Assembly: GCA_040754495.1 (NCBI GenBank)
Contig: JBFMCO010000004.1
Span: forward strand, 1 to 31,268
DNA length: 31,268 nt
DNA from: Candidatus Micrarchaeota archaeon
Lineage (GTDB): Archaea; Micrarchaeota; Micrarchaeia; Anstonellales; Bilamarchaeaceae
Direction: 5' to 3'
The notes beneath the pieces were generated by a model that made no database searches, was not told the origin of the DNA, and was given only the letters and a program-made list of their open reading frames with translations. Position numbers and translations under genes: made by a program. Shown here in pieces: positions 7,323-16,059 of this stretch (the stretch's first letter is position 1; each line of letters starts with the position of its first letter).

Positions 7323-10300
7323 TCATTCCGTCCCTGCGATTTTCTTCGGCGGCGGGCCGAGCAGGTATGCCTTGTTGTGGAACGGAAGCGCATAGGGCGC
7401 GAGCTGGTCCATGCCACGGACCACCTTCCAGAGCGCATCGCGCATGCCCGCGGCCTCTTCCGGCTTGGGCTCCCCCTCGCGCAGCGCGTATATGAGGAAA
7501 GACGCCTTCAGGATGCGCTCGGCGTCCCCGGTGAGAAGGTGCATCGACACGCCGGGTATCAGCTCCTGCCCCTCGACGCTCATGTGCGGGTCGACCGCCA
7601 TCTGGGGATTGAAGTCCGAATATGCGTAGAAGACCATGATTTCCAAATCGCGCGGCAGGATTCCCAGCTTCGCCGCGACATCCTGCACGATTGCCGAATC
7701 GCCAACGTCCAGGACGATGCCATCAAGGTATCTCGTGGCGTGCATGTCGAGCCCGTTGCCTGCGACGTCCGTCTGCGAGTTGAATATCGAATGCCGGGCC
7801 TCCTGGCCGGGCTCGGATTCGGGCTCCGGCCAGCTCATGCCCATGGCTTCTTTGGCCCACCGCGCGACCTCCGGATTGCGCGCCCGGGCGAGCGGAGCGA
7901 GCTCTTCGGCCGGCACCACGCCTGCGACGAAGTCGAACATCGCCCGCCTCCTTTGCGACGAGTCCGGGGCGTTCTTCAGCTTCTTCATGATGAGCCCGCT
8001 CCAGCTCCCTATCCGGGGGCGCAGGAGCTCGAGCAGCTTGTCCCTGTCATCCCGCTGGGACACGACAGCGAACACTGTGCATATGGCTATGGTATGGGCA
8101 TCCATCGAGGATTTGGGCGGCGCGCTCTCGGCCGCTTCTATGAATACGTCGAATATCTGCCCGAGTTCCAGATAGCCGGTGGATTTTTCCATTGCCAAAT
8201 CAAGGAGCCCGCGGTATTGGGCGGATACCGCGAAGCCGCGCGGGTCGTCGTGGATGAGTGCGGCCACCCAGGGGTATGATACCGCGCCGGGGCTTGTCGC
8301 CTCTTCCATCTCCACATCCACGCCTTCTTCATCCTCTGCGGCGGCCGTGGCCGCTTCCGGCTCTGCATCAGCCGCTTCCGTTTCGTTCTGCGCTGCGGGC
8401 CCTTGGTCTTGGGAGATTCCCGTTGGTGTTTTAGGCGGCTGGCCAAGAACGTAGCGCATCTTTAGCGTGATGTCGTCCGGCTTCGGCTTTCCAGGCCGGG
8501 TCCTGCAAGTGCAGAGCGTCGGATGCTCCTTCGTGCTCCCGCTGCTCTTTCCGACGCGGCGCGCGGCCTCCGCAATCATCGAGTCCCGCGCGAAAGTCAG
8601 GTCCGAGCCGCTCTGGCTGATGAATATGCCGAATTCGTGGTCGCAGATTGGCACGCCCATCCCGTCCGAGCACAGCGCAAGGATGTCGCCGGGCCTTAGC
8701 GTGAACGCATCATAACCCCCTGCCGAGTTATTGACATGGACATGCGGCATGATGTGCCCGAGGGCCGCGGCGACTCCCCCCTTCACAATCATGTTGCTGT
8801 GCGCTTGGAATATCTCGTCTGTCCTCGCCTCCACCTGCGCGTCGAACTGCTGCAACAGCTGGCCGTCAAGGCGCTCCACGTCATGGCCTGCATCAGCCCA
8901 TGCCTTGCCGACCTCCGCGAGGGCCATGAGGCGCAAATCCTGCCGCGCGCCCCACTCGCTGGAGTGGCCCACGCTAGAGAAGACGGCCTCGCCTTCCCTG
9001 AGTATCTTCCAGTCGCTGTCGCCGCAGTGTATGCCCCAGAAGCGGTCATTGTGCTGCATGGCTATCGTTATCGTGCTGCCCATGTCGTTCTCGCGCGAAT
9101 CGTCGGCGCTTGCCTTCGAGCGTATCTGCTCCATGACCACCGCAAGGTCGGCCAGCAGGATGGTGCGCCGGGCATCCTCGGGCGTGGATATCCAGCCCGC
9201 GACCGCAGCAAGCTCGAACACCTCTTTGGCGACTGCGCTCGCCCTCTGGCCGTTGGTCCGGCCGCTGCCGTCCGTACCGGTGTTGTGCCCGCCCATGCCG
9301 TCTGCGACCATATCAAGGATGACCCGGCTCCCGTCCGGCATCTCGACTTCGGCGCTGGAGCACGAGTCCTCGTTCGGCAGCTCTTTTCCGTTCCCGTCGT
9401 TCTTGGCCAGCGTCCCCCAGCCCGCGCCGCCCACGGAGCCGTATGGCCTCCTTGCATCCGCTCCGAGGAAATCCGCGAGCGTTACGAACTCGGCCTCGCG
9501 CTTGGCCATGCCAATAAGCGAGGCGTGATGCATCGCGGGCCCGAGGGAGGCGAGTTTGAGGACTTCGTCAATATAATGGCTGTTGCTCGTGTGCCGGACA
9601 AACGCCGTCCAGAGCCTTTTGTGGTCGTCCTCCGCAAGGGAAGAGAGGTCGACGCGCTTGCCGAGCATCCTGGAGGCGAGTGCCGTTTCCTCCGGAGTGA
9701 ATGCCGCATCGGGGACGAACCTGAGCTTGTGGGCGAGGGATGATGCCGTGAGCAGGTCGTACATGCCGTGCCTCCACCACTGCAGGCGCTCCTCTTTCGA
9801 AGGCGAGAACCATCGCTCGCACTTGTCGTGCAGGTAATCCGCCATGGCCTTGACCTCGCCGGTCCTCTGGAAATCAGCGGGTATGAGCTGGGGCGGCGTC
9901 TTTCCCAGCACCCAGGCCAGCATGGACGACTCGTGGTCGCTGAACGTCCCGCGGCCTGCGCGCATCTTCTCGAGAAGCGAGTCCACGGCGGCCTGATGGG
10001 AATATTTCGAGTCCCACCATCTGAGCAGCTCGTCTTCATCGCCGCGCAGCCATACGCCGAAGGACTGGATATGCCCCGCGGTGACCGCTTCGGGCTTTAT
10101 GTCGAAAAGGGATGCGACCAGATGCTTCTGCGTCGCCGTAAGCGCCTGGGGGTTGGTGACCGTGAGCAGTTTCTCCTCTGTAGAAGGTTCCGCGAGCCCG
10201 CATTTCTGATAAAGCGAGCCCCTCATCTGGTGGAGCGCAGCTATGCCGGCCTTCCACTCGCTGCCGAGCCACGTGTCTGCAACAAGCTCCCGGATTATGA

Positions 10301-12869
10301 GTTCCCTCCGGCCCGCATCGAGCTTCAGGAATTCAGCCAGCACGAACTCGTCGCATTCTTTCCTTCCCATGACCTCGGCCACGAGGTTCTTCTCGTACAG
10401 CAGCAGCGAGTCGAATATCTCCTTGGCGCCCTTCTTCGCCTTCTCCGCTTCCGCAGCCTCCCGGGCTTTCTGCTGCGGCGCATCTTCCGGGACAGGAAGC
10501 GGCTCCCGGTCCACCAGCGCAGTGGCGAGCCCGAGCGCGAGTCCCGGCGAATAGGACCTGCGCAGAAGCTTCACCGCAGGCAGGCATCTGGCCTCTATGG
10601 TGTCATCATGGAAATCGAAGCGGACATAGCGCACGAGCGCCCTTGCCACCCTGCGGACAAGGACGTTCCTCTCTATGTCCTTGCCGCTCTCATCCTTCCG
10701 CGGGGGTAGGAGCGGCTCCAGCTCCGCATCCAGGACGTCGTTTGTGAAGGGGAAATCGAATTTCGGGAGCCCTGGCATCTGCGGAGCGGCTTCCGGCGCT
10801 TCGGCTCCGGGCTGTGATTCCTCTGGAAGCACCGGCTGGGCCGAAGCCTGCGGCGGCCCGGGAACTTCCGCTTCGTCCTGTGGCTGCGCCTCAGGCTGCA
10901 CCTGGGCCGGCGGGGCCTCAGGCGCGATGGCCGGCGCAGGCGAAGGCTTGCCAAGGAGCTTCTCGGCGGACCTGAGCTGGGCCAGCCCGTACGCATCGAC
11001 CACCACGGCCGCTTCACTGACTATGCCTTCATGAGTCGGCGCCTGCCTGAGCCGCTCGAGGGAGTCCCGGAAGCACGGCGCGGAGTCCGCAGGCGCGACC
11101 CCAAGTTCCAGATACATGCGCAGGTTCCTTGCGGCCTGCCTTATCAGCGCTGCCCTCGCATCGGTCTTGGGCGGAAGGACTGCCTCGAGTGCAGCGTCGG
11201 TGGCCGGATTGCCGTATGGGAATGTAAGCTCTATCGCAGCGACTGAGGCGAGGGCCTCTTCTATGGTGGAGGGGTGTGCAGGAGATTCGACGGGCACTTC
11301 CGCAGCGGCCTGAGGCTGCGGCGCGGGAGGTTCACGCTCTTCCAGGCGGGTGGCAGTCTCTGGGCTGGGAAGGGGCACGACCTCGGGCTCTGCGACGCCC
11401 GATGGCAGCTTCGGTGCCTGGGGCATTGGAGGTTCCTGGGGAGCTATGTCGGGCGGAGGCGGCTGCAGGGTCGTGAAAGATTCCCTCATGCCCCTCCTCT
11501 CGTCTACCACGGCCATGGCTATTTCGTAATCGGGCGCATGCATGAATTCCTGGCTTTTCGAGAGGAGCTGCATCATCCGAACCCCGCGGGGGACCAGGCC
11601 CGGGTCGACGCCCGGGGATTCCTTCAGGGCCCTGTATTCCGCTATCATGTCGCGCGCTATTCGGAGGTCCTCGTGTGCCTGGGTCCGGGCATCTTCCTCC
11701 TGCATTGACGGAGCAAGCACGCGGACGCGCTCCTCCAAAGCGACAGCCTCGAGCGCGATGCGCATCATGGCGCGGAGGTCGGGCGCTTTCGCAGCCTGTA
11801 TGAATTCGGCGTCTCTCCCCAGGGAAACGGCCACGGCGGAAGCCCCTCCACCCCCAGCTTCATCAAGGACGAGCCGCTGCGCTGCAGCCGCATGCAGGGC
11901 GGCCTCATCCGCCTTCTCCGGAGAGAACTCGAACCCGGGCAGGTCGATATGCGAGCGGGCGAGTGGCCTGCCGGAGCGCAGCACGAACTGGAGCTGGGCC
12001 GCAAGGTCCCCTTTCGAGGCCGGCTCCGGCGCCTCTTCCCTGCATAATGGGAAATTGTCGAATGCCGGCATGCCCCAGGCGGCAGCCACGGCCCTCGCTA
12101 TCGACTCGGAATCGAAACCCACGCCGGCCCTGCCCGCTATCGTCGGCTGCAACCAGCGCTTCATAAGGGACGGCCTGAGCCTTAGCATCGAGTGCCGGGG
12201 GGTACCTGAGTCTCTCTCGCCCAATTCAACACCTGTTTCTGTCCATATACTTTTGTGTAAAGACAATTTTAAAAGGTTGATGTTCGTGGCGAGGAGGGAT
12301 GGAAGCGAGCGCTCGACGAGAGACCGTGCAAGGCCCACCACGGCCGCCTCGTAGCCTGGCATTCCATGCATCCCGGAGAGCTCTGAAACCGGCCCGCGGT
12401 AGAACCCGTTCATGTCTTGCATGGGGAATGCGCATTCTACGTAGCGGTCGAGAAGCCTTGCCAGCACCCTGACGTGGTGCGCGTGCTCGTAGCCTGTTGG
12501 AAGGCTGGTGCCCAGCATCGCCTCGAGGCCGGCGTTCGTCCAGGAGCAAGACGGCGAGAATGGCACCAGGGTCTCCGGAAGGCCCCCGAAGGCAAGGCGC
12601 TGGTTCCGTATGTCCTCAGGAAGGAAGTCGCGCTCCACCACCCACAGCTCGCGGCCCGGAATGAGGTCGGCAAGCCTGCGGAGCGCATCGCGATAGCCGC
12701 GCATGGTGCATGAGAGCGATTCGTAGTCGGGGGGCTTGGCCCGTATCGAATCCATGAGAGCGCCGGCGGCTGTGCGGAATGTTTTCGCGCGGGATTCGAT
12801 GGGGCTGGCCATGCCCCTACGCCTCTGCAGGGACCGCTCTGGCCATTGCGGAGTCCGGGGCGTGTACAT
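7323..12869 (-). CDS. Giant (1848 aa) multidomain protein containing a PP2C/PPM-family Ser/Thr phosphatase domain
   Basis: PPM motifs at about aa 1165-1470: PNEDS, VADGMGGH, DMGST, HCGDS, LCSDGMG, KPDDIT. All four metal-binding Asp positions are present. The rest is Pro-rich linkers and unassigned helical domains. A GTGGTG RBS-like sequence precedes the ATG. Confidence 0.85.
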   Translation of the reverse strand: MYTPRTPQWPERSLQRRRGMASPIESRAKTFRTAAGALMDSIRAKPPDYESLSCTMRGYRDALRRLADLIPGRELWVVERDFLPEDIRNQRLAFGGLPETLVPFSPSCSWTNAGLEAMLGTSLPTGYEHAHHVRVLARLLDRYVECAFPMQDMNGFYRGPVSELSGMHGMPGYEAAVVGLARSLVERSLPSLLATNINLLKLSLHKSIWTETGVELGERDSGTPRHSMLRLRPSLMKRWLQPTIAGRAGVGFDSESIARAVAAAWGMPAFDNFPLCREEAPEPASKGDLAAQLQFVLRSGRPLARSHIDLPGFEFSPEKADEAALHAAAAQRLVLDEAGGGGASAVAVSLGRDAEFIQAAKAPDLRAMMRIALEAVALEERVRVLAPSMQEEDARTQAHEDLRIARDMIAEYRALKESPGVDPGLVPRGVRMMQLLSKSQEFMHAPDYEIAMAVVDERRGMRESFTTLQPPPPDIAPQEPPMPQAPKLPSGVAEPEVVPLPSPETATRLEEREPPAPQPQAAAEVPVESPAHPSTIEEALASVAAIELTFPYGNPATDAALEAVLPPKTDARAALIRQAARNLRMYLELGVAPADSAPCFRDSLERLRQAPTHEGIVSEAAVVVDAYGLAQLRSAEKLLGKPSPAPAIAPEAPPAQVQPEAQPQDEAEVPGPPQASAQPVLPEESQPGAEAPEAAPQMPGLPKFDFPFTNDVLDAELEPLLPPRKDESGKDIERNVLVRRVARALVRYVRFDFHDDTIEARCLPAVKLLRRSYSPGLALGLATALVDREPLPVPEDAPQQKAREAAEAEKAKKGAKEIFDSLLLYEKNLVAEVMGRKECDEFVLAEFLKLDAGRRELIIRELVADTWLGSEWKAGIAALHQMRGSLYQKCGLAEPSTEEKLLTVTNPQALTATQKHLVASLFDIKPEAVTAGHIQSFGVWLRGDEDELLRWWDSKYSHQAAVDSLLEKMRAGRGTFSDHESSMLAWVLGKTPPQLIPADFQRTGEVKAMADYLHDKCERWFSPSKEERLQWWRHGMYDLLTASSLAHKLRFVPDAAFTPEETALASRMLGKRVDLSSLAEDDHKRLWTAFVRHTSNSHYIDEVLKLASLGPAMHHASLIGMAKREAEFVTLADFLGADARRPYGSVGGAGWGTLAKNDGNGKELPNEDSCSSAEVEMPDGSRVILDMVADGMGGHNTGTDGSGRTNGQRASAVAKEVFELAAVAGWISTPEDARRTILLADLAVVMEQIRSKASADDSRENDMGSTITIAMQHNDRFWGIHCGDSDWKILREGEAVFSSVGHSSEWGARQDLRLMALAEVGKAWADAGHDVERLDGQLLQQFDAQVEARTDEIFQAHSNMIVKGGVAAALGHIMPHVHVNNSAGGYDAFTLRPGDILALCSDGMGVPICDHEFGIFISQSGSDLTFARDSMIAEAARRVGKSSGSTKEHPTLCTCRTRPGKPKPDDITLKMRYVLGQPPKTPTGISQDQGPAAQNETEAADAEPEAATAAAEDEEGVDVEMEEATSPGAVSYPWVAALIHDDPRGFAVSAQYRGLLDLAMEKSTGYLELGQIFDVFIEAAESAPPKSSMDAHTIAICTVFAVVSQRDDRDKLLELLRPRIGSWSGLIMKKLKNAPDSSQRRRAMFDFVAGVVPAEELAPLARARNPEVARWAKEAMGMSWPEPESEPGQEARHSIFNSQTDVAGNGLDMHATRYLDGIVLDVGDSAIVQDVAAKLGILPRDLEIMVFYAYSDFNPQMAVDPHMSVEGQELIPGVSMHLLTGDAERILKASFLIYALREGEPKPEEAAGMRDALWKVVRGMDQLAPYALPFHNKAYLLGPPPKKIAGTE

Positions 12870-13151: not shown

Positions 13152-13868
13152 TCAGGCCACCGGGACCTGGAACAGGACGCCCACGAGGTATCCTGCGAGC
13201 GCTGCCGTGCCGCCGATTATCATCAGCTCGAGGCCGCCATTGAGCCACTTCCCGGAGGTGAGGCTGCTCTTGTACGCCCCGACGACGAAGAGGATGGCGA
13301 GCGATGAGGCGAGGGAAACCGCGATGGACTCGGCTATCGGCAGGAAGAAGAACGGCGTTATCGGGATGAAAGAGCCGACTATCGCGCTGAAGCCGACAAG
13401 GGCCCCCTGCCAGAATGGGGACATGGCCTCGGCCGGGTCCTCCAGCTTGAGCTCCTCCTTCATCATCGTGCTGAGCCAGACCTTTTTGTCCGAGCAGATT
13501 TTGTCCACGACGTCTTTCAGCAGCTTGCCGCTGAACCCCTTCGCGCGGTATATATCCTCTATTTCCTTGCGCTCCATCTCTGGTATCTCGTCTATCTCGC
13601 GGAGCTCGCGCCTGACTTCGGACTGGTAGTGCTCGGCTTCTGCCCTCGTAGATGTGTAAGCCACGGCCGCCATGCTGATGCTTTCCGCGAATGTCGCGGC
13701 CAGGCCTGCAAGGAGGACGATGGGGTTGGAGTTGGTTGCTGCTGCGACGCCGAGGACAATGCCGAGGACATTCACCACGCCGTCCTGCCCGCCGAGGATT
13801 ATGTTGCGGAAGAGCAGGCCGAGCTGGGTCGTGTGGTTCTCCTGGTGGGGCGGGACGCTTTCTGCCAC
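13152..13868 (-). CDS. VIT1/CCC1 family (Fe2+/Mn2+) transporter
   Basis: IILGGQDGVV...AATFAESISMAAVAYTS signature, EIEDIYRAKGF cytoplasmic domain, and GSFIPITPFF plus further TM helices. The start is uncertain: GTG at 13868 is preferred, and the ORF extends to 13910. Confidence 0.9.
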   Translation of the reverse strand: MAESVPPHQENHTTQLGLLFRNIILGGQDGVVNVLGIVLGVAAATNSNPIVLLAGLAATFAESISMAAVAYTSTRAEAEHYQSEVRRELREIDEIPEMERKEIEDIYRAKGFSGKLLKDVVDKICSDKKVWLSTMMKEELKLEDPAEAMSPFWQGALVGFSAIVGSFIPITPFFFLPIAESIAVSLASSLAILFVVGAYKSSLTSGKWLNGGLELMIIGGTAALAGYLVGVLFQVPVA

Positions 13869-13923
13869 GCAGGAGTAGCGGAAATCAGGTTTATTATAGT
13901 TTGCCAGCATCTATCAAGCAACC

Positions 13924-14257
13924 GGGCTCGTAGCTCAGCAGCAGAGCGCTCCGTTCGCATCAAACTTTTGGGAACGGCAAAGAACGGCGAACCGTTCTTT
14001 GCGCCCATGGAAGCATTGCTTCCATAGGGAAGTTTGATCAAAACTGGCTGTTGAAAAACCCTGTCGGGTTTTTCGGCGAAAGCCATTTTGCCCGCAAGGG
14101 CAAAATTAGCAAGCCGGTTTTGATCGCCCTTTTCCTAAAAGGGCGGAAATCGGAGAGGCCGGGGGTGCGAGATTGTGTTTCCAGTCTCGGGTTCCCAGTT
14201 TCGCAACGGAACTGGAAACGGAAAACCGGAAACCCAACGCATTTCCCCCCGAGTCCA
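13924..14257 (+). tRNA. tRNA-Ala(CGC) with two introns (13960-14149 at 37/38; 14172-14243 at 59/60)
   Basis: Acceptor GGGCTCG/CGAGTCC with G3:U70 and A73 (Ala identity). D arm GCTC/GAGC, anticodon stem CTCCG/CGGAG with loop TT-CGC-A|T, variable loop AGGCC, T stem GGGGG/CCCCC. The second intron has a full hBHBh' motif (TGCG/CGCA helix, 3-nt bulges, TTG/CAA). TATA-like TTTATTATA upstream, oligo-T downstream, no encoded CCA. Confidence 0.9.
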
Positions 14258-14271
14258 TTTTTCTTTTTTTT
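14258..14271 (+). terminator. Oligo-T terminator after tRNA-Ala
   Basis: TTTTTCTTTTTTTT directly after discriminator A73. Confidence 0.7.
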
Positions 14272-14305
14272 ACTGCTTCCAGCCGCAGCCACGACTAGTC
14301 CATTT

Positions 14306-16003
14306 CTATTTCCTGATTAACCTTACGTATAGCGAAATGTCATCGTCCTTTCCGCCGCGGTCCGGGCAGCCGCACGTGGTCTTGTAAGTCTGCCTCGACT
14401 CCCTGCGTGAATCCGCCAGCGATACTATCTTCCGGACCGCCTCCTCCTGCGAAGCCGGGAGCGACATCGCAAGCTCGTGCTCGCACACCGTGTCCCCGAT
14501 GCCGTCAGTGTAGGTGAAGGCCGCGTCGCCAATCTGGAGGATGATTGGCTCGTAAAGGCCCCTTGGCTTGTTGTTTATGTCTATTGCGCGCGGTCCGATG
14601 CCAAGGCCTGCCCAGATGCGGTTTCCGAACCCGTGCGCGTTCGTCGAGAAGAGAGTCTTGCCGGCGCGCACTATCAGCGATTTGCTGTCGCCGCAGTTGA
14701 TCGAGTAGAATCGGTTCCCTTCGAAATACGAGACGGTGGCAGTGGTTCCCATGTCATGAAGGCCGGTGCGCTTTTTCTCCATGTTTATCGCGATGTCCGC
14801 AAGCACCACTGCGCGCCGGACATCCTCCGGGCAGCGAATCCACCCTGCAAGCGCGGAAACCTCGAGGGCCTGCTTCGCAACCGAGCTTGCGACGCTGGCG
14901 CCGTGGTAGCCGCTCACGCCGTCGAAGACTGAATCGAGCGAGATGCGCCGGCCGCCCACGAGGATTTCAAGCGACGACTTCGAATCGCCGTTGGATGGGT
15001 GGTCGCCCTCCAGGTTCATGCTTCCGATGCAGATGCCCCTCGCCCCGTCTATGGACGCAGAATGCGCCTCTCGCGCTATTCCGAGCGAATCGAGCACCGT
15101 CTCGAACTCCATGCTGGCTCGCGCGTCTTCGAGCAGCGGCTCCTTGCCTCCCCATACCAGGTGGGGAAGGGTTGTCAGCGGACCGTGCAGGTAGAAATCG
15201 AAGCCGTTTGCGGCCGAGGAAGCGAGGATATCGTTCATCCCATGGCTGATTTGATTGGACCGGAACGCCCTGCGCAGGAGCATCTCCTCGTCAGCAGTGA
15301 GGAGCGGCTTGTCCGTGAACCTGAGCTTGTGCACCAGAGAGGCCAGCGTGGACGCGCACGGATTCATGCGGCGCCACTCCGTTCCAAGGGATTCCGGCAG
15401 AAGGTGCGACACCCAGCGCCTGAATTCGTCCATCTGGGCATGTGTCAGGCCGCGGCTTGCGACTTCCGGAAAAGCGGAGAAGAAACCGAGCTGCGCCTGC
15501 GAAAGCTCCCCTGGCGCCATGAGGGCGCGCATCCTCTGCTCCGCGGTCGGCCCGGCAAGGGCGAGCTTCCCCTCGAGGGACTCCATAGCGGAGCGCGCCT
15601 CATCCAGTTCGGCCGATACCAGGTCCGCGCAGTAATGGGCAGGCCGCTTGCCGTCCCGCACTTCCTGCTCCCGCCTGGTCGTCCATCTTCCAGAGGTCCA
15701 GATTGCGCTTATGGCATTCTTCATGCGCAGCTCTCTCACGCCCGGGTCCATCGACCGCAGGGCCTCAAGCTCCTCCCCGCCGACACTGGCGCAGCGGAGC
15801 GCCGCCAGAACAAGCGCCTCTTCCGCCACAGCAAGGCCGTGCGCATCGGATGCATGGGCCGGCTCATCTGAGATATGGACGCCCCAGTTTCCTGCTATGC
15901 TCCGGGCGAGTTCCTCGTGGTCAAAGGATATGCCCTTCCTGCCGGCGAGCGTGCTGAGCGTAGCGAATCGCGTCGTTTTCCGTGCGCGCTCCTGATGCGA
16001 CAT
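14306..16003 (-). CDS. PP2C/PPM-family phosphatase with N-terminal helical extension; paralog of the central part of the 1848-aa protein
   Basis: Motifs SNGDS, VFDGVSGYHG, DMGTT, NCGDS, YTDGIGD, KDDDIS. ATG at 16003 follows GAGAGGG; the track ORF starts at 16018. Confidence 0.85.
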   Translation of the reverse strand: MSHQERARKTTRFATLSTLAGRKGISFDHEELARSIAGNWGVHISDEPAHASDAHGLAVAEEALVLAALRCASVGGEELEALRSMDPGVRELRMKNAISAIWTSGRWTTRREQEVRDGKRPAHYCADLVSAELDEARSAMESLEGKLALAGPTAEQRMRALMAPGELSQAQLGFFSAFPEVASRGLTHAQMDEFRRWVSHLLPESLGTEWRRMNPCASTLASLVHKLRFTDKPLLTADEEMLLRRAFRSNQISHGMNDILASSAANGFDFYLHGPLTTLPHLVWGGKEPLLEDARASMEFETVLDSLGIAREAHSASIDGARGICIGSMNLEGDHPSNGDSKSSLEILVGGRRISLDSVFDGVSGYHGASVASSVAKQALEVSALAGWIRCPEDVRRAVVLADIAINMEKKRTGLHDMGTTATVSYFEGNRFYSINCGDSKSLIVRAGKTLFSTNAHGFGNRIWAGLGIGPRAIDINNKPRGLYEPIILQIGDAAFTYTDGIGDTVCEHELAMSLPASQEEAVRKIVSLADSRRESRQTYKTTCGCPDRGGKDDDISLYVRLIRK

Positions 16004-16059
16004 GGCCGGCCCTCTCAATGTTGTGTGAATTAGAAGTTTGTGTAAATCGGTTTAAAACA

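Follow-up and report, generated by a model that had tools for sequence, protein, structure and literature searches.

The closest described relatives of the element considered here are introns of archaeal tRNA genes that carry bulge-helix-bulge (BHB) splicing motifs. In the Thermoproteales, tRNA genes that are not orthologous carry near-identical BHB introns, which also differ in position (Fujishima et al. 2010, summarised in PMC4090602), and the mechanism by which introns transpose in archaeal tRNAs is unknown (PMC4090602); a 2026 preprint on the tRNA introns of Asgard archaea likewise leaves their route of arrival open (10.64898/2026.10.13.758758). The splicing endonuclease EndA of the epsilon2 type has been shown to cleave in vitro both strict BHB motifs and relaxed ones of the helix-bulge-helix (hBH) or bulge-helix-loop (BHL) type (PMC3239211). 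The literature found by us describes the transposition in Thermoproteales and the short introns of Ca. Micrarchaeum acidiphilum ARMAN-2, and nothing was found in it on long, structured, hairpin-ended introns of Micrarchaeota; introns go unmentioned in the description of Ca. Bilamarchaeum dharawalense (PMC8561730). Such an intron, 190 nt long, lies at 13960-14149 on the plus strand of a 31,268-nt stretch (the window) of contig JBFMCO010000004.1, from an assembly of a Candidatus Micrarchaeota archaeon (GCA_040754495.1), where it interrupts a gene for tRNA-Ala(CGC) at canonical position 37/38.

The explanation that we favour, with a probability of roughly 0.72, is that this intron 1 is a protein-spliced BHB intron belonging to a genus-specific, non-coding, proliferating family, and that it has grown by the accretion of hairpin modules. 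In what follows, G000 denotes the source genome, G011, G045, G050 and G051 denote related genomes, and C or L followed by a number denotes a contig or a locus.

The host gene occupies 13924-14257 (+) and measures 334 nt, of which 262 nt (78%) are intron. From 13924 onwards the letters resemble a tRNA, with an acceptor stem GGGCUCG, a D arm, an anticodon stem CUCCG and a loop UUCGCA; the acceptor stem, whose 3' strand reads CGAGUCC, contains the G3:U70 pair that is the expected mark of tRNA-Ala. Neither default ARAGORN nor Rfam detected the tRNA-Ala(CGC) gene in the window. When 13960-14149 is deleted together with a second insert at 14172-14243, ARAGORN returns a 72-nt tRNA-Ala(CGC), and this restoration of a canonical tRNA is in agreement with the intron-less paralogue and with the orthologues. 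These genes are natural controls that fix the junctions of both introns. In the paralogue, a tRNA-Ala(GGC) at C56:21298-21446, no 37/38 intron breaks the anticodon loop; this gene carries a T-loop intron that is 96% identical to intron 2, and its 5' part matches exon 1 (13924-13959, positions 1-37, with the anticodon CGC at 13956-13958) with 95-100% identity. The tRNA-Ala(CGC) orthologues in G011, G051 and G050 share the 37/38 intron; their T-loop, which reads UGCGAGU, is free of any intron.

The structure predicted by RNAfold for 13960-14149 consists of three abutting domains and has a minimum free energy of -99.5 kcal/mol, as against -56.0 +/- 4.1 kcal/mol for 200 dinucleotide shuffles (z = -10.6), none of which folds as well. 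Domain A (13960-14037) is closed by the stem 13960-13967/14030-14037 and holds an 11-bp hairpin at 13977-14002 and a second hairpin at 14003-14029. Domain B, or module B (14038-14123, about 86 nt), is a four-way junction that scores 92.1 bits against the covariance model described below, and domain C is a terminal hairpin, H3 (14124-14146), which is followed by the tail AAA (14147-14149). A sequence-only reading of this DNA had proposed a tRNA intron in which three highly paired domains abut. Folding, ARAGORN and the junctions in paralogue and orthologues all agree with that proposal, and each hairpin that it placed in domains A, B and C can be read in the sequence. In one respect it needs amendment: the long stem that closes domain B is real, but the comparison of copies favours, instead of a single 12-bp helix, an 11-bp outer helix P1 (14038-14048/14113-14123), a bulged A (14112) and a near-invariant 5-bp helix P1b (14049-14053/14107-14111; UGUUG/UAGCA, with two G.U pairs), inside which lie the hairpins P2 (14054-14073), P3 (14075-14084) and P4 (14085-14106).

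The same reading had denied the intron both an ORF (open reading frame) and a C/D box. The motifs RUGAUGA and CUGA are indeed unmatched in 13960-14149, and no kink-turn motif occurs in intron 1. One frame of 63 codons is free of stops, but the lengths of module B copies differ by amounts that are not multiples of three; on this ground a coding function was rejected and intron 1 is taken to contain no gene. A search of the whole window against Rfam 15, which includes group I and group II introns and small ribozymes, gave nothing at gathering thresholds, and in E-value mode the best matches in 13900-14290 were short hairpins with E of about 1. Two further candidates were discarded: a hammerhead-like reading of CUGUUGA...GAAA in module B, since the junction is four-way instead of three-way and the core lacks CUGANGA, and a reading of module B as a nested BHB intron, since the helix that closes it is continuous and has no 3-nt bulges.

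The intron is not alone. In a BLAST comparison of the gene with the source genome, sequences 78-90% identical to domain B turned up on other contigs, and the inner part of domain A recurred too. These recurrences are long 37/38 introns in the genes for tRNA-Thr(CGU), Ile(GAU), Val(GAC), Leu(CAG) and Pro(UGG) and in one further tRNA gene (C56:56440-56660). They share a layout in which a first hairpin, H1 (X-CUUUU-NGG-AAAAG-X'), is followed by module B, by H3 (Y-CUUUU-CCU-AAAAG-Y'), by a few purines and by the splice site; the core of H3 is the reverse complement of that of H1. Hairpins of the H1/H3 type number about 45 in the source genome and 2 in a shuffled genome. Because ARAGORN with its intron option (-i) missed the tRNA-Ala(CGC) gene and assigned several wrong anticodons (Ile(GAU), for example, appearing as Ser(GGA)), the host tRNAs were rebuilt by explicit splicing. 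The 29 introns rebuilt in this way are 123-241 nt long, and 22 of them contain the H1 motif.

A covariance model, R1, was built from module B copies of the source genome and its relatives, 25 of which make up alignment A1. In the source genome R1 finds seven copies (five full, two partial), all within tRNA introns. Among 40 genomes of the genus (the Ca. Bilamarchaeum group) it finds module B in 15, with between 1 and 22 copies each; the 31 genomes sampled from other genera of the family, and the 77 from the order's other families, gave no copy. The exact module B pattern, sought in one genome for each of 185,579 species, gave 17 matches; 15 of these are in metagenome-assembled genomes named Micrarchaeota, Micrarchaeia or Ca. 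Bilamarchaeum, LFW-283_2, the type of Ca. Bilamarchaeum dharawalense, being among them. The other two, in bacterial metagenome-assembled genomes, reach just 20-23 bits with R1, look like chance and were set aside. A collection of viral contigs contained no exact match to the pattern.

Module B has been found in tRNAs for Ala, Thr, Ile, Val, Leu, Pro, Glu, Gly, Ser and Arg, at position 37/38, in the D-loop, at T-loop positions and in 23S rRNA. G045 has 22 copies, among them ones at D-loop, T-loop and 37/38 sites, with at most two per tRNA gene. In all 29 copies with a rebuilt host tRNA, and in 11 further G045 copies read by eye, module B is in the sense orientation. Two loci of G045 are peculiar in their position: at L050 (G045:C81:1450-2075) a full H1-B-H3 element interrupts the 23S rRNA gene near its 3' end, and at L052 (G045:C80:30468-31049) an H1-B-H3 lies outside any intron position, with the 3' end of a tRNA on one side and an rpS2-like gene on the other. 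The sequence-only reading had entertained a functional structured RNA, probably released as a circle. The three domains of intron 1 are not a one-off RNA of this kind, since they correspond to the canonical H1-B-H3 layout of a family with dozens of copies confined to one genus; a stable functional circle is conjecture.

The structure of module B is conserved. Covariation was judged by counting pairs, with shuffled alignments and slid partners as controls. In a structure-blind MAFFT alignment of the 25 copies, 88.9% of the cells are paired, and the covariation score is 0.235, compared with 0.101 after shuffling and at most 0.074 with slid partners. RNAalifold independently predicts P1b, P2 and P4, and 9 of 21 pairs show compensatory change. 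Over 70 copies aligned with the model, 89.2% of the cells are paired, double changes occur in 27 of 34 pairs, and the score is 0.311 versus 0.132; P2 and P4 are paired at 98-99%. Several copies do without P3 or P4 or have them enlarged, namely those in the Pro and Leu introns of G000, that in the Thr intron of a further genome, G010, and some in G045, so the constant core is P1-P1b-P2. There are 189 G.U pairs in module B and 40 A.C, a count to be read with the caveat that the model used to align the copies favours G.U; this excess points to sense-strand pairing at the level of RNA. On the source genome, R1 gives 92 bits on the sense strand and 25 bits on the antisense strand. The earlier reading had staked its proposal of a structured RNA on orthologous introns keeping their structure, and both the orthologues and the paralogous copies do so, with compensatory changes. 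However, the same conservation is also expected of a proliferating intron that must stay spliceable.

The orthologues show how domain A arose. In G051 and G050 a plain H1 hairpin of 23 nt opens the Ala(CGC) intron, whereas the H1 loop of G000 and G011 contains an extra two-hairpin piece of about 58 nt, module N. Because of the plain H1 in G051 and G050, domain A can be resolved into H1 and a nested module N: the 5' half of H1 (X-CUUUU-GG, 13960-13971) closes the domain with the 3' half of the stem (14030-14037), these being the halves of what is an uninterrupted hairpin in G051, and module N fills 13972-14029, with borders good to about 3 nt. The order H1-B-H3 is itself kept in the orthologous introns of G011, G051 and G050. 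Module N recurs in the sense orientation in the H3 loop of the Thr intron, and in the antisense orientation in H1 of the Leu intron and in H1 of the intron at C56:56440-56660. Four more copies are outside recognised tRNA genes (C25:170-230, C61:3424-3452, C16:12043-12071 and C50:30594-30622); the one on C25 lies in the spacer between an rpS12-like and an rpS7-like gene, and that on C61 lies just 3' of an rpoK-like gene. From its intronic and intergenic copies in both orientations, module N therefore behaves as a dispersed DNA repeat, similar to repetitive extragenic palindromic (REP) elements, that lands in the loops of hairpins; at its junctions no clear target duplication is readable. Stepwise accretion of hairpin modules, which had been offered as the alternative to a functional RNA, thus describes domain A well, given the plain H1 of two relatives and a repeat that is dispersed in both orientations and between genes.

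The intron is tailored to its host at its 3' end. The element H' (CGGA, 14144-14147) can pair with nucleotides 32-35 of the tRNA (UUCG, 13954-13957) to give a 4-bp BHB central helix, and it adjoins the 3' bulge AA/U (14148-14150, the stroke marking the splice site); the anticodon stem, this 3-nt bulge and the 4-bp helix would form the h-B-H part of a BHB motif. In the four Ala(CGC) orthologues the partner of UUCG is CGGA, CGAG, CGAA and CGGG, such that pairing is kept. In the family, intron positions -6 to -3 make four of four pairs with nucleotides 32-35 in 20 of 29 introns, as compared with 11% for non-cognate combinations. With its 5' site in a relaxed loop, the motif of intron 1 would be of the hBH/BHL type. 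The two ends of the introns can also pair with one another, because the cores of H1 and H3 are reverse complements (mean duplex energy -15.1 kcal/mol versus -6.9 kcal/mol for shuffles); the Glu introns are among the members in which a canonical hBHBh' motif results.

The enzymes for protein-based splicing are encoded in the source genome. An EndA of 391 aa (C14; L105:889-2061) matches the ARMAN-2 epsilon2 structure 4fz2 from end to end (E = 1e-132) and matches both Pfam tRNA_int_endo and its N-terminal domain, and RtcB is present with 551 bits. A second ORF, of 168 aa, at C31:19181-19684 (L106:1276-1779), has a weak match (33.5 bits) to the tRNA_int_endo catalytic domain.

These observations can be assembled into a plausible course of events. 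The last bases before the 3' splice site, being matched to host nucleotides 32-35, would build with the anticodon stem and the 3-nt bulge an h-B-H that an epsilon2-type EndA could cut, as its ARMAN-2 relative does on such motifs, with the 5' cut falling in a relaxed loop; RtcB would then join the exons and probably circularise the intron. The copy in tRNA-Ala(CGC) is an old one, since at least three other species have it; being common to four species, it is inherited. It has grown by accretion, the dispersed two-hairpin repeat having landed in the loop of H1 to produce domain A, and module B appears to have been homogenised recently with that of the tRNA-Thr(CGU) intron. Indeed, within G000 the Ala and Thr modules are 92% identical, while the Ala orthologues are 76-82% identical among themselves, which points to recent copying or gene conversion between the Ala and Thr(CGU) introns in this genome. 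Differences by gain or loss are visible at several levels: module B is in only some genomes of the genus, as given above, the Ala(GGC) paralogue is without intron 1 and the orthologues are without intron 2.

Several findings weigh against this explanation. The inner helix h' makes one of four pairs in intron 1, so that the 5' splice site is in a relaxed loop and not in a canonical 3-nt bulge. The minimum-energy fold of the anticodon arm with the intron lacks the BHB helix, and forcing that helix costs 4.7 kcal/mol. The mean identity of module B copies is alike (0.72-0.75) whether they share a genome or a host tRNA, and clustering by host tRNA or by genome gave no clear signal beyond a few close pairs. 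No mobilising enzyme was found in the source genome, which is 80% complete: neither a reverse transcriptase nor a Y1 transposase (PF01797) was detected; four TnpB-like genes are present. No pair of empty and filled sites with a clear target duplication was found either. Finally, a near-invariant P1b with conserved G.U pairs and a strict sense orientation are more than a neutral passenger needs, and they hint at a specific role at the level of RNA.

Such a role beside intron status is possible, and the rival explanations differ mainly in what they make of module B. One is that module B, or the excised and probably circular intron, is itself a functional RNA, whether as a platform for proteins or as the cis core of a movement at the RNA level. 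The strong covariation of P2 and P4, the near-invariance of P1b with its two conserved G.U pairs, the predominance of G.U over A.C, the exceptionally stable fold, and an orientation that is sense only, although hairpin ends of this kind are symmetric under inversion, are all in its favour. However, a distribution limited to one genus and patchy within it, a copy number that varies between 1 and 22 among genomes, hairpins P3 and P4 that are lost or enlarged in several copies, and the lack of any matching Rfam family do not fit this easily, and spliceability by itself selects for compact folding and sense orientation; we therefore regard the idea as rather unlikely. About equally doubtful is a bolder form of the mobile explanation, in which H1-B-H3 would be a new kind of non-coding mobile RNA element whose module B, with its invariant, G.U-containing P1b, acts in cis to let the excised circle re-enter other structured RNAs or their genes, for example by a reversal of the EndA and RtcB reaction, and in which the splice motif at each new site would come from the hairpin ends, with their inverted repeats, and from a 3' tail that can be retargeted. 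The contrary proposal, that all the modules are palindromes of DNA of the REP or miniature inverted-repeat transposable element (MITE) type, tolerated in introns, with compensatory changes that come from the upkeep of palindromes and no constraint at the RNA level, accounts well for the inverted terminal repeat made by H1 and H3, for module N, for insertions nested in hairpin loops and for the L052 copy outside any RNA gene. It has more trouble with module B, in which G.U pairs outnumber A.C, the antisense strand scores far below the sense strand and no antisense copy is found in any host RNA gene examined; moreover, the 3' tail is fitted to each host anticodon loop, and no Y1/RAYT transposase was found in the 80%-complete source genome. 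It is accordingly judged improbable.

Another question is whether domain C does more than end the intron. The sequence-only reading had noted that domain C competes with the BHB helix, and on paper this is borne out: 14144-14146 have two possible partners, 14124-14126 at the foot of domain C and the anticodon loop, and the two pairings exclude one another. The competition recurs in the family. In the three orthologues the cost of forcing the BHB helix is +7.7, +0.5 and +3.8 kcal/mol, so that over all four it ranges from +0.5 to +7.7 kcal/mol. A gating switch could be built on this, in which a closed H3 would hide H' (14144-14146) and bar the BHB motif until the base of the hairpin opens. The 5' strand of H3 even mimics the anticodon loop, both in the four Ala orthologues (UCG or UCUCG versus UUCG) and in the Thr introns (CCCG versus CUCG). 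However, the overlap arises automatically, because a palindromic terminal hairpin must also end in a complement to host nucleotides 32-35, and gating is thus not needed to explain it. In some members, such as the Ile(GAU) intron of G000, just two bases overlap; the energies are model values for 37 C, and a few kcal/mol can be paid by the binding of the enzyme; and no regulator or condition is known. A splicing gate is on these grounds as improbable as the palindromes of DNA. As for chance structure or an artefact of assembly, the z-score of the fold and the homologous copies in about 15 independent assemblies leave it next to no weight. The protein-spliced, proliferating BHB intron is for these reasons the explanation that we retain.

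The rest of the gene gives the context of intron 1. A TATA-like, A/T-rich box at 13891-13899 (+), about 25-30 nt upstream of the 5' end of the tRNA, is a putative archaeal promoter, and a T-rich run at 14258-14271 (+), directly 3' of the gene, is a putative terminator; a scan for bacterial-type promoters gave no match, the bacterial model being inapplicable to this archaeon. Exon 2 (14150-14171, +) comprises positions 38-59 of the tRNA, as seen from ARAGORN on the spliced form and from the orthologues, and exon 3 (14244-14257, +) comprises positions 60-73, with the discriminator A at 14257. The gene is flanked by two minus-strand ORFs, at 13152-13910 and 14306-16018, and a 1848-aa ORF at 7323-12869 (-) lies about 1 kb upstream.

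Between exons 2 and 3 is intron 2 (14172-14243, +, 72 nt, position 59/60), whose limits are given by its fold, by ARAGORN and by the orthologues. It has a strict hBHBh' motif, with the T-stem GGGGG/CCCCC, a central helix UGCG/CGCA and the bulges AG/A and UU/U, from which an intron at these coordinates and a mature T-loop UGCGAGU are predicted. It is made of GGAAAC/GUUUCC-type repeats; neither tRNA-Ala(UGC) nor the orthologues of three other species contain it. In G045 (L059) the 59/60 site of tRNA-Ala is occupied by an H1-B-H3 intron instead of the GGAAAC type, and this site has therefore been colonised twice. The tRNA-Ala(UGC) gene, at C22:56229-56399, has two introns, one in the D-loop with an H3-type hairpin at its end and one of the GGAAAC-repeat type, about 40 nt long, at 37/38, and there are thus three distinct intron configurations among the three Ala genes. 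Upstream of module B, the G011 orthologue (L029, G011:C24) has an extra D-loop insert of about 40 nt that G000 lacks.

The tRNA-Ala molecules are also unusual in their loops. The T-loop UGCGAGU, with G in the place of U55, is found in all three tRNA-Ala isoacceptors of G000 and in the orthologues of G011, G051, G050 and G045, and the same set has a 7-nt D-loop, AGCAGCA, without the usual GG (in the window, 13937-13943 for the D-loop, and 14166-14171 with 14244 for the T-loop). This suggests that the contact between the D-loop and the T-loop has been rewired in these tRNAs.

The finding tells more about the multiplication of such introns than about a new function of RNA. The family offers a sequence-defined and recently active case of intron gain, with a conserved core, inverted-repeat ends and a 3' tail that tracks the host loop, and it comes with filled and empty sites among relatives and paralogues, several positions within tRNAs and a copy in rRNA. 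The ARMAN-2 homologue of the host enzyme has been crystallised and assayed in vitro. A gene that is 78% intron and that default ARAGORN and Rfam both miss also affects the counts of tRNAs in DPANN genome bins.

New here, relative to the systems already described, are the model of module B, the evidence on how this module covaries and where it occurs, the fit of the splicing helix to each host, the series of orthologues and the origin of domain A from a nested repeat. The tRNA-Trp intron of Haloferax and other Euryarchaeota, which contains a box C/D guide RNA (cited in PMC4090602), is also long and structured, but the present intron has neither C/D boxes nor a kink-turn. REP elements and the paired form REPIN, like MITEs, are short, multi-copy, non-coding hairpins that have inverted terminal repeats, insert into one another and also lie between genes, this last as in module N; unlike them, module B sits in the sense orientation in RNA genes with an RNA type of G.U pairing, and RAYT or Y1 was not found. 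Ca. Micrarchaeum acidiphilum ARMAN-2 (PMC3239211, PMC3488258) belongs to the same phylum, has an epsilon2 EndA, and shares introns at 37/38 and 59/60, strict as well as relaxed (hBH/BHL) motifs and several introns per gene; its substrate introns, however, are of 13 and 25 nt, and no family of long, structured or repeated introns is described in PMC3239211. The transposed introns of the Thermoproteales resemble this family in being spread over non-orthologous tRNA genes and in having an endonuclease that accepts relaxed motifs. The present family is in the Micrarchaeota (DPANN), which is another phylum, and, in a contrast drawn in part from a review, its members are 123-241 nt long, with a covarying four-way core and palindromic, inverted end hairpins. 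They differ again from the introns of the Thermoproteales in accumulating nested repeats and in having reached, at L050, a gene for 23S rRNA.

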